Assembly: GCA_002373695.1 (NCBI GenBank)
Contig: DFLH01000001.1
Span: 114 to 64,113, forward strand
DNA length: 64,000 nucleotides
Source: Verrucomicrobia bacterium UBA3624
GTDB taxonomy: Bacteria; Verrucomicrobiota; Kiritimatiellia; RFP12; UBA1067
Reading direction: 5' to 3'
Shown: in pieces, positions 1 to 57,820 of the stretch
Layout of the letters: each line of letters begins with the position of its first letter
Position numbering within the stretch: position 1 is the first letter of the stretch
Made by a program: the position numbers and the translations under genes
The notes under the pieces: generated by a model
The model's input: the letters and a program-made list of their open reading frames with translations, nothing else
What the model was told of the DNA's origin: nothing
The model's database searches: none

Positions 1-76
1 TGGCCTTGCCATGTTTCTTGTCCTTCCTGCCGACTTTGCGCCGGCGGGAAAGAGGATATCAGTTCCGCAAAACCGA

Positions 77-118
77 ATTGTCTCAAAATTGTCTCAAATT
101 TGTCTCAAAAATATCTCA
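77..118 (+). repeat. Four 11-bp-phased copies of GTCTCA(AA), starting at 80, 91 and 102, with a degenerate ATCTCA at 113
   Basis: Read directly: attGTCTCAAAattGTCTCAAAtttGTCTCAAAaatATCTCAtg. The period equals one helical turn. The array lies about 210 bp upstream of ATG 329. Confidence 0.85.
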
Positions 119-186
119 TGCGATTTGGGTTCTCCGAAGGGTCTGTCCCCACACGTTCCAATGTAGCAGATTATCATCTCCCGGTT

Positions 187-196
187 GGGGGGGGGG
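187..196 (+). repeat. Homopolymeric G10 tract in the upstream region of the first gene
   Basis: Read directly: ccggttGGGGGGGGGGaagaaaag. It lies 11 nt upstream of a TTGACG hexamer (208-213). Confidence 0.9.
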
Positions 197-328
197 AAGA
201 AAAGAGCTTGACGCTCATTCCAAAAAAAGATAGTGCCATTCTGATTTAGGATAGTGCATCTTCGGCAGGAATGCGGTATAATCCCAGTTGTTTTGCTGGG
301 GAAGTTTTACCGAAGAAAGGATGTCGGC

Positions 329-1519
329 ATGAAAAAGAACGTGATGCGGAAGTGTGGATGGGTGGCGGCCGTTGCGGCGGTGTGCTCGTCGTCGTGCGTT
401 GCCGTGGCGGCGGAGGCGACGCCGCTGGGCGTGCTTGACCCGGAGGACGCGACGGCGTATCTCACAGCTGGCGCGCAGATATTCAAGGGCGATCTCGTGA
501 AGCAGGGAAATGGCACGACCACGCTTTCGCTGGCGGACGTCCATACGGCCGGGGGACGGATCGTAGTGGCGGACGGTACGCTTGCCGTTTCTGGAGCTAC
601 GGCGGCGAACGATCCGGGGAAGCCATGGGGCGTCCTGTCGAACGCCGTCGTCTGGCTCGATGCATCTATGCCGGAAACGATCGGTTTCGTCGAAGGCTCG
701 TCCGTGAACGTGAGCGAGTGGCGCGACGTGCGCGAGACGGGTACCGGTTCCGCTTCCAGCCCGTACCTCTACCGCCGTGCCGTGGCATACACCAATATCG
801 GGCACTCTGCCACCTACGCGCCCGATCCGGCAGGCTGGTTCCCGGAATACGTTCCGGCGAACGGCGGCGAGAACGCGTACGTGGACTTCGGCCAGTATTC
901 GAGCGGCCGAATGGTACGGTTCCTTGACATATCCGGCAATGTGAGCGCGATATCAAACATGCGCCATGCGTTCGTGGTCTTAGGCACGCATGACGGCCAC
1001 TACGGTTTTCTGTTCAATCCAGGTTCCGGGAACGCCATATTCGTGCCGCAGTCGTATGGCAATCTCGTCAACTGCACCCCTGGCAAGTTCATCCAGCAGG
1101 CAGGAGGCTGGAGCGTGCTGTTGACGGGCGTGTTTCGCGTGGACGGAAAGGCCGTGGATCCGGTGAACGAGGCGGGACCTAATGGCGGATACCAGCTGCT
1201 GGACATTGCAGCCGGAAAGGACGGCTGGAATCCTGTCGGCTTGTTTTCCCACGACACCATCGCCAGCCAGGCGAACGGATATCGACAAGGTGGCGGACGA
1301 CTCTGCGAGGCGATTCTTTTCGACAAGCCGCTCGAGGAGAGGGACAGGCTGAAAATCGAAGCGTATCTCCGGTGGAAGTGGTTTGGGGCTGAAGTGGCCG
1401 CGCCGACATGCTTCGTGAACAAGGATGCAACGCTTGTAATCGACAATTCAAGGGGGGGGGTACAAAGATCTGACGGTTATCGGCAACGGTCCGGTAACGC
1501 TCGAAGCCGGAACGCTTGA
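329..1519 (+). CDS. Secreted LamG-like domain protein; N-terminal fragment of a gene interrupted at a G9 tract
   Basis: ATG 329 is preceded by AAAGGA. Signal peptide: MKKNVMRKCGWVAAVAAVCSSSCVAVAAEA. LamG-type domain ending: LCEAILFDKPLEERDRLKIEAYLRWKWFG. The frame terminates at 1519, shortly after the G9 tract. Confidence 0.75.
   Translation: MKKNVMRKCGWVAAVAAVCSSSCVAVAAEATPLGVLDPEDATAYLTAGAQIFKGDLVKQGNGTTTLSLADVHTAGGRIVVADGTLAVSGATAANDPGKPWGVLSNAVVWLDASMPETIGFVEGSSVNVSEWRDVRETGTGSASSPYLYRRAVAYTNIGHSATYAPDPAGWFPEYVPANGGENAYVDFGQYSSGRMVRFLDISGNVSAISNMRHAFVVLGTHDGHYGFLFNPGSGNAIFVPQSYGNLVNCTPGKFIQQAGGWSVLLTGVFRVDGKAVDPVNEAGPNGGYQLLDIAAGKDGWNPVGLFSHDTIASQANGYRQGGGRLCEAILFDKPLEERDRLKIEAYLRWKWFGAEVAAPTCFVNKDATLVIDNSRGGVQRSDGYRQRSGNARSRNA
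1452..1460 (+). repeat. Intragenic homopolymeric G9 tract at a frameshift point
   Basis: Read directly: aattcaaGGGGGGGGGtacaaag. The reading frame of ORF 254-1519 and that of ORF 1533-3575 meet here. Confidence 0.9.
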
Positions 1520-1532
1520 CACTGCCGATCCG

Positions 1533-3575
1533 GTGGCGCTGACGGTGGCGGAGGGTACGACATACAACGCCATGACAGGCGGGGTGGAACGCGTGTCCGG
1601 CGGCGGTTCTTCGTTTGTAAAGACAGGTGATGGCGAGATGGTGGTGCAGAAGGTTTCTGACGGCCTCGTCAAGATCGATGTGCGGGACGGCGTCTTGCGT
1701 CTGCGGCAGGACATGATTTCTCCGTTCTCCGTTCCCGCCAATCTGTGCGGTTACATCGAGGATCCGTCGTTCGAGGCGTTTTCGGACACGACTGTCCCGA
1801 GTCCCGGTCTTTATCTGGATTCTACAGGCAAGCACGGATGGAAGACGTACGGGAGCCATGAGAAGGGAAACGTCGCGAAATGGCAGACAGGCGGCGGTTA
1901 CTTCAACATGGCGGGAATACCGTATCCCGACGGGATCTATGTGGGCGTGTTGCATATCCGCGGTGGCTTGCAGACGACGGTGACGCTTCCGGCGGATGGC
2001 GTCTACAGGCTGTCCTACTGGGTGGCACAACGTCCAAACTATAAAGGGCACGAGCATCGCGTCCTGATCGACGGCATGCCCGTTGCGGAGGTCAAGGCGT
2101 GGGATTCGTCGTGCAACTGGCATCTCGTGTCGTTTCGCCTGCCTCGACTTGCCGCCGGCGAACATACGCTGGTCTTGGCAAGCGACGACAACAACAGCAC
2201 GGCGACGCGCACGGTCGATTTCTCCGTCACGGACAATATAATGTCCACTGGCAATCTCGTAGCACTTGTCGACGACTTCCACGTGGACTGGATAGAGCCG
2301 GGGGATGGGCAGGTGGCAATCAGCAACGCGAGTTTCGAGGTGACTTCGTTCAGTGCGCGTGGCTACGAAAAGAACCCGGAAGACCTGGGCGGATGGGTGC
2401 TGGGGCCTGTGGACGAGACTAACTATGTCGTCCTTGAGCAGACATGGAACGGGCGGCCTACATTGCATCCGGCATCGGACGGATGCCGTATCCTGAATCT
2501 TGTCAACCAGGTGCATGTCGGGCAGGACGTGACATTCCCTAAGGCCGGGACTTATACCTTGACGCTGGTGGCGGGTTCCGCCGCAGGGAACGATATCGCA
2601 AGCTATCCAGGCAAACTCCGGTTCATGCTGGGCGAGACGGAGATCGGCGCGCTTGAACTCCAGACGAACGGCAAAGCATCGATCATGAAGACGTTCAACC
2701 TCCAGTTTGCCGTGCCGGAGGCCAACTACACTGCCAGGCTTTACATTGCGAACATCAGAGGCGGATCCATCGTTTCCGTAGACGACATCAGGATATCTGC
2801 ATTCGAACCGGGAGTGAATGTGGTTGCCGAAAACTCGTTTGCCTCTACGGGATGGAGCGTGTACGAACCGGAATCGGACATTCATGACGGATCGGGGAAA
2901 GTAGAATGGTTGCCACAGGCGCTTTCCGATGTCGCCTGGGGTCCTGTGACATATGGAGAAGACGGCAACCGTGCCGGAATCCGCAACAACGCCTCGATCT
3001 GGCGCACGGTGGCGTTTCCTGCCGCCGGGACGTACCGGCTGTCCGTCGCGTCCATCGGGCGCTTCTACCGCTACAACGACTCGCATCTGACCGATCCCGG
3101 CATTCTGACGCGTTACAGCGGCAACGCGTTCAACGCCTGGGTGGCGAAGGGCGGCGTTACGAACGTGGTCGGCACGTTCGGCGTGGACGACCGCGAAAGG
3201 TTCGTGACGCACCGGTTCCTGTTCGAGCTGCCGGAGGGCGGCAACTGGGAGGTGGGCTTCAGCGGGCTGAAGGAGTCGGAGCACAAGGTTGCCGGGAGCA
3301 ATACCTGGTACAGCAACGGCGGCGTGCTGGACGGCCTGGTGATCGAAAAGGTGACGGCGGCGGCGAAACCGGGCGTTCCGGAGACGGTGGAGATCGACGT
3401 GGCCGAGAGGGCCGTGCTGGCGCTTGACTATCTGGGGACGAACAAGGTTGCCGCCGTGCGCTATGCGGGGCGGAACTATTCCGGGGAAATCAATGCGGTC
3501 ACATGCCCGGCGTTTATCACCGGCGCGGGGGTGTTGTACGTGCAGCCGAAGGGCACGGTGCTAATGTTCCGCTAA
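1533..3575 (+). CDS. C-terminal fragment of the same surface-protein gene: beta-strand repeat region plus three CBM/jelly-roll-like modules
   Basis: This frame is open upstream back to the G9 tract (YKDLTVIGNGPVTLEAGTLDTADPVALTVAEG...). Three modules each start with a P-A-(D/G)-G-x-Y-x-L motif (LPADGVYRLSYW, FPKAGTYTLTLV, FPAAGTYRLSVA). The first two end with VDDF/VDDI. The coordinates follow the GTG start in the ORF track. Confidence 0.75.
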   Translation: MALTVAEGTTYNAMTGGVERVSGGGSSFVKTGDGEMVVQKVSDGLVKIDVRDGVLRLRQDMISPFSVPANLCGYIEDPSFEAFSDTTVPSPGLYLDSTGKHGWKTYGSHEKGNVAKWQTGGGYFNMAGIPYPDGIYVGVLHIRGGLQTTVTLPADGVYRLSYWVAQRPNYKGHEHRVLIDGMPVAEVKAWDSSCNWHLVSFRLPRLAAGEHTLVLASDDNNSTATRTVDFSVTDNIMSTGNLVALVDDFHVDWIEPGDGQVAISNASFEVTSFSARGYEKNPEDLGGWVLGPVDETNYVVLEQTWNGRPTLHPASDGCRILNLVNQVHVGQDVTFPKAGTYTLTLVAGSAAGNDIASYPGKLRFMLGETEIGALELQTNGKASIMKTFNLQFAVPEANYTARLYIANIRGGSIVSVDDIRISAFEPGVNVVAENSFASTGWSVYEPESDIHDGSGKVEWLPQALSDVAWGPVTYGEDGNRAGIRNNASIWRTVAFPAAGTYRLSVASIGRFYRYNDSHLTDPGILTRYSGNAFNAWVAKGGVTNVVGTFGVDDRERFVTHRFLFELPEGGNWEVGFSGLKESEHKVAGSNTWYSNGGVLDGLVIEKVTAAAKPGVPETVEIDVAERAVLALDYLGTNKVAAVRYAGRNYSGEINAVTCPAFITGAGVLYVQPKGTVLMFR

Positions 3576-3585
3576 GGAGTGGCTT

Positions 3586-6468
3586 ATGTTGTTGCGAACC
3601 ATGGTGCCGGTTGTCGCATATGCGATGGCCGCAGGGAAATTGTCGGCCGCGGAACTTCTCTTCCATGCGCCTTTTGACGGGTCGTCTGTGGCGGCCTCGG
3701 CAAGGGGCGAGGCGCGTCCGCAGATCGCGCGAGGGCTGGAATACGCGCCGGGCGTGGATGGGCAGGCCGTGCGCCTGACGGCGAAGGCGAAGAGCGTGCT
3801 GCAGTACGCCCTTGCCGGCAACGTGCTGCCGGAAAAGGGGGCAGTGTCTTTGTGGGTGAAGCGCGAATGGCCGGATGAAGGAAACAGTCCGGAAGGGAAG
3901 GAGATATGGCGGACTATGTTTTCGTTTCCCGAGCCGTGCAAGAGGTTTGGATCCGGCTCTCTTTCCCTGTGGTGGTGGGGATCGAAATTGCGTTGCGACA
4001 TCACGGACCGTGGCCACACGCATATCAGCAGGAACGGCGTTCCTCCGCCTGACGGGAAATGGGAACATGTCGTCTTTACCTGGGATGAAGATGCGAAGGA
4101 GGCGCATCTATACCGGAACGGACGAAATATGCATTATCATTCCGACGATACCGGACCGATGGCAAGGGTTGTAAGAAAGAAGACTGGGCTGCCGTTCACA
4201 TTCGACAGGCCGGGGTTCGACAGATTTTTCGTCGGATGTCTGGGCGACGGGCAACGAGTGGAGGGGCTTGTGGACGATTTCCGCATCTACGCCGAGGCGC
4301 TTTCGGATGCGGAGGTCATGGCGCTCTTCAGCGAGCATTCCCAACTTGCGGAACCGCCGCAGGAGAAGCCCGACTATGCCGCGTTGTTCGCCAACGACGG
4401 ACCGAATCCGCACGAGGGCGGGGAGCGTCTGGACCTTGAGTTCGTGGCGGAGTACCGCTTCGACGCGGAGTCGATGGCGCGCTACCGCCGGGAGAAGCGG
4501 TTCCGGTCCGTCGGCGACGTGTCGGAGAAGTCGCTGTGCGGCGTTCCGTATCTGGAGGCGGGGACGAACCTCAACGACCGGTTCGCGTTCATGTTCGACA
4601 TCGATCCGTCCGTGCCGCTCTACTGCTTCGACTTCGTCTATCCCGACGACGCAAAGCGCACGTGCGACCTGCTCGTGCAGTTCAAGGAGGCGCATGGCGA
4701 CGACTATGCCCTCCAGGTGGGCTATTTCACGGGCGATGAATATCCGAACACGGGGAAGATGCTCACGCACCGGTGCCTGTACTGGACGACGCCGGGGCAG
4801 GGCGAGCTGGCGATGATCGCGATGACGGCGCGCGCAGGCGTCCCCGCCGCGCTCGCGGCGTTGCGCGTCCACAAGGTGAAGGACGCGAAGCTACCGCCGC
4901 TCGCCGTGCGCGAGCCCAAGCCGGCGGGAGACTGGAACCGGATGTTCGGGATGTGCTGGGAGGATCCCGCCATCGGCTACGACTTCGGCACCGGCGGGCA
5001 CGGCGCGAAGGAGATTTCCGCGCTCGTCGACCGCACCGCCGCCTACATGAAGTACTGCGGGCAGAACGTGTTCTGCTATCCGGGCGTCTGGTACCAGGGG
5101 CTGATCGGGGAGAACTACAATCCGCGCAGCCACGCGCCCGACTTCCTCTCGGCGTGGTATGAGAAGTTCGACAAGGAGGGGTTGTTCTTCGTTCCGAACG
5201 TCAACGCGAACAACATGGAAATCCCTGCGGGCCTGGTGACGATGGACACGATGACGAACGGCGCGCTGCACGCCACGCCCATCGCGATCCACGACACGGG
5301 CAGGCCCAACTGGGGCGGCTGGCACAACTCGCCGCCAAACTTCAACTTCATCCACCCGGACGTGCAGGCGCAGATCGGGCGGCACATCGACGCGCTCCTC
5401 GACCAGGGGGCGACGCATCCGAGTTTCAAGGGCGTGTGCATATACCTCACCATGCACAGCATGAACTGGTTCGGCGACATCCGCAGCGGATACAACGACT
5501 ACGCCGTGCGGGCTTTCGCAAAAGACAAGGGTCTGGACATTCCGATCGATGCGACCGATCCGATGCGTGGCCGCGCCAGCGCGAAATGGATTCGTGAACA
5601 TGCGCTTGACGCGTGGGTGCAGTGGCGGTGCGACCAGGTGACGCGCTTCTATGCGCGGATAGCCGAGAAGCTGCGCGCGCGACGTCCCGACTTGAAGCTG
5701 TGGCTGAACAGCTTCGTGCAGCCGGACTGGAACTGGCCGGACTTCATGGAGGACGGTTTCATGGAACGCCAGGCAAGGGAAGGCGGGCTGGACCGCGCGG
5801 CGCTCGCCGCCATCCCCAACCTCATCCTCTGCCAGACGCAGCTTCCCGCGTTCTGCCGCAAGCGCGACCGCAGGCTGTTCCCGAACGACGAGACGTATGC
5901 GTTCAACCGCGTGCTGCAGACGAAGCCCGGCTTCTTCGCGCTTTTGAAGGACGCGCGCTTCCCGTGGATCAACCAGCACGACCTCTACTGGGAGAACCCC
6001 GTTGGACGCGAGAAGGGTGAGTTGAACGGCGATGGGTTCGTCGAGACCAAATGGCGCGTCACGACGATCAACCCGTCCGGCTACCACGCCCTGCGGGATT
6101 TCGTCCTGCCGCTCCGTTTCGGCGACGTGCTGGGCATGTCGAAGGGCGGATATCTCGTGGGCACCTACGGCATGGAGGAGCATCTGCGCGCGTTCGCCGC
6201 CGCGTACCGGGCGCTGCCGGCCGTGGTGATGAAGGAGATTGGACGGAAGGGAAATGTGGTGTTGCGCCATGCGGACTACGACGGAGAGTCGTACTTCTAC
6301 GTGGTGAACACGGGTCTTGCGCCGATGATGGTAAAGCTCGCCGTTCCTCCCGGGACCAGAAATCTCGTGACCGGGGAATGTGCGAGCGGTGACGTCTTGG
6401 AAATGGAACTGGGGACGTATCAGCTGGTCGGCTTTGCAGCTGGAGCAGGGAGGCCCGCAATCAGGTGA
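3586..6468 (+). CDS. LamG-domain protein fused to a putative glycoside-hydrolase-like TIM-barrel region
   Basis: TAAGGAG lies 6 nt upstream of the ATG. N-terminal signal-like segment: MLLRTMVPVVAYAMAAG. LamG signature: LVDDFRIYAEALSDAEVMALF. The C-terminal 650 aa resemble GHL10/GH42-like hydrolases (GVCIYLTMHSMNWFGD..., WVQWRCDQVTRFYARIAEKLR). The family was not verified. Confidence 0.55.
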   Translation: MLLRTMVPVVAYAMAAGKLSAAELLFHAPFDGSSVAASARGEARPQIARGLEYAPGVDGQAVRLTAKAKSVLQYALAGNVLPEKGAVSLWVKREWPDEGNSPEGKEIWRTMFSFPEPCKRFGSGSLSLWWWGSKLRCDITDRGHTHISRNGVPPPDGKWEHVVFTWDEDAKEAHLYRNGRNMHYHSDDTGPMARVVRKKTGLPFTFDRPGFDRFFVGCLGDGQRVEGLVDDFRIYAEALSDAEVMALFSEHSQLAEPPQEKPDYAALFANDGPNPHEGGERLDLEFVAEYRFDAESMARYRREKRFRSVGDVSEKSLCGVPYLEAGTNLNDRFAFMFDIDPSVPLYCFDFVYPDDAKRTCDLLVQFKEAHGDDYALQVGYFTGDEYPNTGKMLTHRCLYWTTPGQGELAMIAMTARAGVPAALAALRVHKVKDAKLPPLAVREPKPAGDWNRMFGMCWEDPAIGYDFGTGGHGAKEISALVDRTAAYMKYCGQNVFCYPGVWYQGLIGENYNPRSHAPDFLSAWYEKFDKEGLFFVPNVNANNMEIPAGLVTMDTMTNGALHATPIAIHDTGRPNWGGWHNSPPNFNFIHPDVQAQIGRHIDALLDQGATHPSFKGVCIYLTMHSMNWFGDIRSGYNDYAVRAFAKDKGLDIPIDATDPMRGRASAKWIREHALDAWVQWRCDQVTRFYARIAEKLRARRPDLKLWLNSFVQPDWNWPDFMEDGFMERQAREGGLDRAALAAIPNLILCQTQLPAFCRKRDRRLFPNDETYAFNRVLQTKPGFFALLKDARFPWINQHDLYWENPVGREKGELNGDGFVETKWRVTTINPSGYHALRDFVLPLRFGDVLGMSKGGYLVGTYGMEEHLRAFAAAYRALPAVVMKEIGRKGNVVLRHADYDGESYFYVVNTGLAPMMVKLAVPPGTRNLVTGECASGDVLEMELGTYQLVGFAAGAGRPAIR

Positions 6469-36918: not shown

Positions 36919-36948
36919 TTGACATAATGCGCAGGGGGGGGGTATAAT
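36919..36948 (+). promoter_or_regulatory. Consensus sigma70 promoter TTGACA-18 bp-TATAAT whose spacer contains a G9 tract (36934-36942)
   Basis: Read directly: TTGACAtaatgcgcaGGGGGGGGGTATAAT. It lies 36 nt upstream of ATG 36985. Confidence 0.7.
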
Positions 36949-57800: not shown

Positions 57801-57820
57801 ATTTTTTTGGGGGGGGGGGG
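57801..57820 (+). repeat. T7 run directly followed by a G12 homopolymer
   Basis: Read directly after the tRNA-Gly CCA: TTTTTTTGGGGGGGGGGGGcaggtg. Confidence 0.9.

Follow-up and report, generated by a model that had tools for sequence, protein, structure and literature searches.

Does the run of nine guanines near the beginning of contig DFLH01000001.1 of Verrucomicrobia bacterium UBA3624 (assembly GCA_002373695.1) separate two neighbouring genes, or does it interrupt a single one, and, in the latter case, what does the interruption represent? We addressed this question in a stretch of 64,000 nucleotides (nt) of that contig (positions 114 to 64,113 of the forward strand; hereafter the window, in whose coordinates all positions are given). 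A first-pass annotation, made from the letters alone, had placed a G9 homopolymer between two open reading frames (ORFs) of a putative surface protein gene of about 1,080 amino acids (aa), and had offered two explanations for it, namely a phase-variation switch captured in the OFF state or a homopolymer sequencing error. Our comparisons with related sequences indicate that the two predicted products, of 396 aa (ORF1) and 680 aa (ORF2), belong to one gene. As for the frameshift itself, we give roughly even chances to a slipped-strand poly-G contingency switch captured OFF; it is the best reading because of the excess of long G tracts in the window, a 3′ gene part without stop codons, and a ratio of nonsynonymous to synonymous substitution rates (dN/dS) of 0.24 in that part.

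One frameshifted gene

On the plus strand the junction reads caattcaa-GGGGGGGGG-tacaaag, with the G9 run at exactly 1452–1460. The run is an uninterrupted coding-region homopolymer in the size class of about 8 nt or more; it takes up codons 375–377 of 1081, within the 5′ third of the gene, and these specify (Arg-)Gly-Gly at a turn within a stretch of beta-strand repeats. The 5′ part of the gene (329..1519, plus strand) comprises a signal peptide, an N-terminal domain of unknown fold and a 19-residue out-of-frame tail (1460–1516), its frame ending in ...LVIDNSRGGVQRSDGYRQRSGNARSRNA before the stop codon TGA at 1517–1519. The 3′ part (1461..3575, plus strand) encodes beta-strand repeats, three beta-sandwich modules that resemble carbohydrate-binding modules (CBMs) and a conserved C-terminus. 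It lies in the +1 frame, which reads GGYKDLTVIGNGPVTLEAGTLDTADPVALTVAEG... and GGYKDLTVIGNGPVTLEAG... and has no stop between TAA at 1437–1439 and position 3575. The peptide DLTVIGNGPVTLEAGTLDTADPVALTVAEGTTYNAMTGGVER is specific to this frame when read from upstream of the GTG codon at 1533.

Translation of alternative tract lengths gave single ORFs of 1081 aa with G8 and 1082 aa with G11, as opposed to the truncated 396-aa product of the window state (G9) and, with G10, a product ending in ...NSRGGGTKI. A single-unit change in the tract is therefore enough to move between a full-length and a truncated product. The coordinates and translations of the first-pass annotation at this junction were borne out, including the restoration of one ORF by G8 or G11, with the exception of its ORF start at 254, which we correct to ATG 329. 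This ATG follows an AAGGA ribosome-binding site and opens the signal peptide MKKNVMRKCGWVAAVAAVC..., and GTG 254 is not the start because it lies upstream of the conserved −10 box (277–282) and because all orthologues begin at the ATG. GTG 1533 is merely the first possible start of ORF2 and has neither a ribosome-binding site nor a signal peptide. Gene callers report the 396-aa product for the 5′ part in other assemblies too, together with the 680-aa product.

A search with the fused protein returned at least 22 uninterrupted homologues of 1049–1116 aa from rumen Kiritimatiellae (58–70% identity, covering 98–100% of the query) and ~100 further homologues of roughly 1065 aa at 47% identity. Single-ORF orthologues span 100% of the fused protein; the sole exact match to the fused query was the window's own 680-aa ORF2. 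The nearest genome matches were rumen metagenome-assembled genomes (MAGs) labelled Kiritimatiellae (goat omasum RGIG2765) and ‘RUG’ rumen genomes, and the G+C content of the window (62%) is consistent with those rumen Kiritimatiellae MAGs.

At the junction itself, the alignment is free of gaps against NSGGGDGI... of three orthologues (P0001, P0008 and P0009), with the G8 reading equal in length, and homology continues unbroken over the 24 codons that separate the tract from GTG 1533. The tract falls within a 20-residue beta-strand unit, KDATLVIDNSRGGYKDLTVI, which is missing from many orthologues, and the site therefore tolerates length change. Orthologues with the unit read ...ATLAIDNSGGGDGIASVA..., encoded by TCA GGG GGA GGG GAC or TCA GGA GGA GGG GAC. 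Measured from this TCA to the conserved GGTT that follows, the interval in the window and in L003, its closest relative, exceeds that of the orthologues by exactly 1 nt, which means that G8 restores both frame and length. By contrast with the homology on either side, the 19-residue ORF1 tail has no counterpart in any orthologue, all of which read straight across the junction.

On this comparison of sequences, the 396-aa and 680-aa calls are one frameshifted gene, since full-length relatives are uninterrupted and the G8 reading matches their length; as an annotation result, this is firm. The contrary view, that a real stop and a real start delimit two separate genes, has the output of the gene callers in its favour, but it is refuted by relatives that are consistently single ORFs rather than gene pairs, by homology that crosses the junction ahead of GTG 1533, by the unmatched tail of ORF1 and by an ORF2 that has neither a ribosome-binding site nor a signal peptide, and we attach practically no probability to it.

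The tract in other assemblies and in a second allele

The strain of the window is present, at 100% identity over 7.5 kilobases (kb), in three further assemblies (ERZ12302819, SRR5322873 and SRR873603). G9 is found in all of them: in the metaSPAdes contig NODE_14190 of ERZ12302819, at 97x coverage, and in the Logan assemblies SRR5322873 and SRR873603. These are consensus sequences of essentially one strain, with flanks that are 100% identical, possibly in part from a single study; several of the dataset names suggest a project on sheep rumen.

The second allele, L003, is a MEGAHIT contig from a different study (ERZ27257205), and its ORF1 is 98% identical to that of the window. Its tract is G10 by virtue of a G, instead of A, at 1451, with total length and frame as in the window; its ORFs measure 396 aa and 671 aa, and the 671-codon 3′ frame is intact. 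Relatives carry G at 1451 without exception, so that the A of the window is derived and has shortened G10 to G9. At the in-gene tract we thus found no length variation in this low-power comparison of consensus sequences: the four assemblies of the first strain all have G9, and a substitution at unchanged length accounts for the G10 of L003. An interrupted sequence, GGGGGAGGGG or GGAGGAGGGG, still present in relatives, is the probable precursor of the tract, and we count it in favour of a switch.

Searches for further variants were made in several ways. The exact junction pattern with variable tract length had no match in JGI metagenome contigs, and protein-based scans of genome and metagenome contigs returned only relatives at 62–81% identity, none with a tract. 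A homologue search with ORF1 alone, for tract-length variants, yielded only the L003 allele and fragments broken elsewhere, and look-ups of neighbouring genes, which are blind to the state of the tract, gave the same few contigs.

Constraint and allelic mosaic in the 3′ part

The frameshift is the sole lesion in the gene. Downstream of it, the 3′ frame runs through 680 codons without a stop, as against 11 and 26 stops in the remaining frames. Comparison of the 3′ part with its counterpart in L003 gave an overall dN/dS of 0.24; individual C-terminal blocks range from 0.18, in the most divergent one, to 0.38, and synonymous divergence (dS) reaches ~1 in places. These values, together with a single lesion, differ from the multiple lesions and relaxed constraint of a decayed pseudogene.

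Nucleotide identity between the two alleles changes abruptly along the gene: it is 99.5% at 422–1521, 50–89% at 1522–2821, about 97% at 2822–3321 and about 75% from 3322 onward. Within the C-terminal half (1522–3575), hypervariable blocks (50–89%) are mixed with near-identical ones (97–99%). Such a pattern suggests that cassettes within the CBM-like modules have been exchanged between alleles, and a hypervariable C-terminal mosaic would be expected for an exposed protein. Taken together, the mosaic identities and dN/dS values lead us to recognize two old, selected C-terminal alleles behind one young, shared, frameshifted N-terminal half. The 3′ part has evolved as coding sequence under purifying selection and has been exchanged by recombination, and its divergence may predate the frameshift.

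Breaks also occur elsewhere in the family, namely in P0122–P0127, in L022 at 1300–1400, and in L023 at 1050–1120 and 2290; they comprise a deletion, a signal-peptide frameshift and a rearrangement, none at a homopolymer. Two broken fragments were examined and proved to contain one deletion and one rearrangement, which are uninformative on the G9 tract. Such breaks may reflect gene decay or the chimeric assembly of mixed strains.

Long G runs across the window

The numbers of G runs of length 1 to 7 in the window are 10349, 3937, 687, 180, 31, 2 and 1, a drop of ~5-fold per added G. From this run-length decay, 0.03–0.1 runs of at least nine Gs are expected in 64 kb, and four were observed: G10 at 187, G9 at 1452, G9 at 36934 and G12 at 57809. 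Long tracts are thus in excess, lying in the split gene, upstream of it, in the promoter of another secreted protein gene and after a tRNA pair. No C run in the window is longer than 5. Eleven related loci, ~66 kb in all, are free of G or C runs of at least 7, and a further relative carries one G7 and one G8. The window is asymmetric between strands (G 33.2% vs C 28.6%), with nearly all long ORFs on the plus strand, and its long homopolymers are all G on the plus strand and none C.

The tract nearest to the split gene, G10 (187..196, plus strand), lies ~80–90 nt upstream of the −10 box, outside the conserved block, and is lineage-specific. It is identical in three other assemblies of the strain, and L022 has TTGAGTG in its place. 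Similarity to other alleles ends at this tract, and a divergent gene lies nearby.

The G9 tract at 36934–36942 (promoter at 36919..36948, plus strand) forms half of an 18-nt spacer in a TTGACA...TATAAT promoter with 12/12 consensus positions; 37 nt further downstream is the start codon (ATG) for a protein of 876 aa, which has a signal peptide and no Pfam or NCBIfam match. The spacer measures 18 nt with G9 and would measure 17 nt, the optimal length, with G8. By analogy, this is the layout of a textbook transcriptional homopolymer switch; the tract is G9 in 5/5 other assemblies.

The third sister tract is a T7G12 element (57802–57820, with G12 at 57809..57820, plus strand) directly 3′ of a tRNA-Ser(CGA)/tRNA-Gly(CCC) pair, and it is the only tract with observed polymorphism in both length and sequence. 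The window and SRR5322873 share G12; ERZ12302819 has G13 (the sole difference in 3.7 kb), and two strains of 99.6% identity have G6AG6. The start of three contigs falls at this tract, inside it or no more than about 12 nt beyond it. A terminator and an integration site are both possibilities for the element. That the adjacent tRNA-Gly is a frameshift suppressor was considered and ruled out by its normal 7-nt anticodon loop.

A proposed contingency switch and its alternatives

If tract length acts as a slipped-strand switch, cells with G8 or G11 would make the full-length secreted protein. G9, the state in every assembly seen, would be OFF, with a 396-aa product that lacks the carbohydrate-binding modules, and G10 would also be OFF, with a truncated product of ~381 aa. 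Such a switch would presuppose that length changes are reversible and occur at a useful rate, and that ON cells are present as a minority; in the OFF state, 2 kb of RNA would go untranslated, and the resulting polarity might in addition reduce expression of the hydrolase genes that follow. Several features of the locus argue for it. With a sole lesion, an intact 3′ frame and a conserved promoter and leader, the gene does not appear decayed, and the excess of G runs, the promoter-spacer tract and the polymorphic 57809 tract would all be in keeping with switching by G-tract length, as would the lack of long runs in the eleven related loci, the tolerance of the site for length change and the hypervariable C-terminal half. 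To this extent, genomic context makes the switch proposed in the first-pass annotation plausible. The error that it set beside the switch is unlikely, and the pair was not a full list, a recent fixed frameshift and programmed recoding having been left out.

Other observations weigh against a switch, and many of them would suit a recent fixed inactivation, in which a one-G slippage gave rise to an OFF allele that spread or persisted without adaptive switching and is now a young pseudogene. We regard this as rather unlikely, at appreciably lower probability than a switch. OFF is the state of every assembly and of both known alleles, which do not differ in total length, and the in-gene G9, the upstream G10 and the promoter G9 are constant in length in every assembly that reaches them; at the 57809 tract, the G12/G13 difference could be technical. 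No fused ON protein at >77% identity was found among 5.8 billion protein clusters, where the ORF1 cluster consists of only two OFF sequences. The derived G-to-A change at 1451 shortened and so eroded the run, contrary to what selection for mutability would predict. Other family members are broken by deletions, rearrangements and frameshifts at non-repeat sites, which means that plain gene loss does occur in the family. The ORF1 region is 99.5% identical between the alleles, and the frameshift may therefore be one recent shared event. An inactivated gene would nonetheless have to be reconciled with a single lesion, a conserved promoter and two very different 3′ alleles (dS ~1 in places) that are both intact behind the same frameshift. 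It would also leave the excess of long G tracts, including the one in the promoter spacer, in need of a separate explanation, and a tract of G9–G10 is physically prone to revert.

Two further explanations were weighed. In programmed recoding, the out-of-frame genotype would be a stable expressed state whose G run is recoded, through +1 slippage of tRNA-Gly(CCC) on GGG-G with a rare GUA codon in the A site or through slippage of RNA polymerase, yielding the same protein as G8; we consider this improbable, both as a mechanism and as a description of the genotype. It would account for an out-of-frame length that all assemblies and both alleles share, and for a 3′ frame that is intact and evolved under purifying selection; GTA is indeed rare (5.6 per 1000 codons, 7% of Val), and prfB has a Shine-Dalgarno-like stimulator to which the G run bears a resemblance. 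However, distant orthologues (58–70% identity) are in frame without the tract, with GGG GGA GGG or the segment absent, so that the arrangement is young and not conserved. In addition, the RNA fold downstream of the tract is less stable than shuffled sequences (z = +1.4), Rfam gave no match apart from the two tRNAs, the shift site lacks a stop codon, tRNA-Gly(CCC) has an ordinary 7-nt anticodon loop, and transcriptional slippage in bacteria is known from runs of A or T. Finally, the true tract could be G8 and the gene intact, with G9 an error of sequencing or assembly, for which we see very little likelihood. Homopolymers are error-prone, assemblies that agree in every other respect read the G12 tract as G12 or G13, with contigs terminating there, and the datasets of the first strain may partly come from one sheep-rumen study. 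Against this, G9 is identical in four assemblies, one of them at 97x, the distinct allele L003 from another study shares the extra base, and the other two G9/G10 tracts also read alike everywhere; a consensus error is unlikely because three assemblers and a second allele agree on the extra base.

The encoded protein

The fused protein carries a signal peptide and tandem beta-sandwich CBM-like modules, and it is predicted to bind glycans. The signal peptide assigned by the first-pass annotation is visible in the sequence, and its CBM-like modules are supported by three sources: a Pfam HpiC1-like (CBM-like) domain at residues 661–799 (30.9 bits vs a cut-off of 27), DUF642 (PF04862) in the relatives at 47% identity, and fold matches. 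The AlphaFold model, built from 30 sequences, has a mean predicted local distance difference test score (pLDDT) of 61, with values of 70–90 for the beta-strand segment and the three C-terminal beta-sandwiches and <50 for residues 111–327. Foldseek matched it to tandem CBM22, CBM51, HpiC1 and CBM-like domains of large glycosidases and of Cry/Vip toxins. A sequence search of the PDB with the protein gave no match.

The remaining domain assignments of the first-pass annotation fared less well. It had named a LamG-like domain, which Pfam does not detect in the poorly modelled N-terminal part, where there is no match even at E = 10; a LamG or concanavalin-A-like domain is therefore not assigned there, and it is the neighbouring gene that does carry Laminin_G_3. 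Its beta-strand repeats reached only sub-threshold profile scores, in Pfam as an autotransporter-type beta-strand repeat at residues 56–87 and in NCBIfam likewise as repeat matches.

Promoter, leader and neighbouring genes

The promoter and leader (217..328, plus strand) contain a direct repeat of GATAGTGC (230–237/251–258, copies 21 nt apart), a −10 box TATAAT at 277–282 without a −35 box, and the AAGGA ribosome-binding site. The ~110 nt that precede the ATG hardly differ among nine loci (L003, L004, L005, L011, L012, L017, L021, L022 and L023) whose proteins share only 60–70% identity. A consensus sigma-70 scan of 1–3700 gave no match, and an AraC-type regulator gene lies upstream in one relative. 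We infer an activator-dependent promoter from the direct repeat, the TATAAT box without a −35 element and the AraC-type gene in that relative. The leader also holds two small hairpins. The start of the signal peptide, MKKNVMRK, heads other genes as well (in L014 and L015, and in second matches in L005 and L011).

Downstream, the next gene (3586..6468, plus strand), with LamG and GHL10-like domains, starts 10 nt after the split gene, and is followed further on by a DUF2490-like gene, two genes for MGH1-like hydrolases and one for a GH5-like protein. Given the 10-nt interval between stop and next start, the split gene probably heads a glycan-degradation operon with glycoside-hydrolase-like genes.

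The region upstream of the split gene has some features of its own. TGTCTCAAA(A/T) is repeated three times at 79–118, and the 84-nt segment 76–159 is present twice, 218 nt apart, in contig L006 (1–302). Two Logan contigs start at window position 130. A minus-strand gene starts at position 12 (MARPNRVKLTGEGYYHV...) and may encode a protein resembling transposases of the IS200/RAYT type.

Relation to known systems and implications

Homopolymer switches in promoter spacers include the Bordetella fim C-tract, the poly-G/C tracts of Neisseria opc and porA, and Haemophilus hif. The sister tract at 36934 resembles them in lying between perfect −35 and −10 boxes and setting the spacer length; it differs from them in a length that is invariant in 5 assemblies, and it belongs to a locus separate from the split gene. 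Programmed +1 frameshifting of the prfB type and the suppression of +1 frameshifts at G runs by tRNA-Gly of the sufD type offer another comparison. The split gene shares with these a potential +1 shift at GGG-G, where the codon that follows is rare and the sequence is G-rich and Shine-Dalgarno-like. Unlike them, it has a site that is unconserved in orthologues, no stop codon, a normal tRNA-Gly(CCC) and no stimulatory RNA structure.

Poly-G contingency loci are known mainly from host-adapted pathogens. Published accounts describe translational phase variation by poly-G/C tracts in Campylobacter jejuni, Helicobacter and Neisseria, for example in gonococcal pgtA and pilC (PMC2193922, PMC5320596, PMC2823697, PMC5084427). 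As in those loci, the gene studied here codes for a surface or secreted product and carries, inside its 5′ third, a G tract within the 8–13 nt range; a one-G change would toggle full-length and truncated forms, several tracts occur per genome, and the tract encodes Gly in a length-tolerant loop. It differs from them in its host, an uncultured rumen commensal of the Planctomycetes-Verrucomicrobia-Chlamydiae (PVC) group (Kiritimatiellae), in heading a glycan-degradation cluster instead of a locus for surface-structure biosynthesis, and in that no ON/OFF polymorphism was seen here. Our literature search found no paper tying Kiritimatiellae to phase variation, and a further one, on rumen Kiritimatiellota genomes, brought up nothing relevant. 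The mechanism is known, and its occurrence in Kiritimatiellae is unreported in the literature searched.

Were recoding to prove the true explanation, it would set the ratio of the truncated N-terminal product to the full-length CBM-bearing protein, and the locus would represent a G-run recoding site in a PVC bacterium. If instead the tract switches, as the contingency reading has it, an uncultured rumen member of the Kiritimatiellae would toggle a secreted glycan-binding protein, and probably the hydrolase operon with it, by poly-G contingency. This would extend stochastic switching to a fibre- and glycan-degrading member of the PVC group, and it would offer a way to approach differences between strains in how they use carbohydrates in the rumen, or the avoidance of phage and host.

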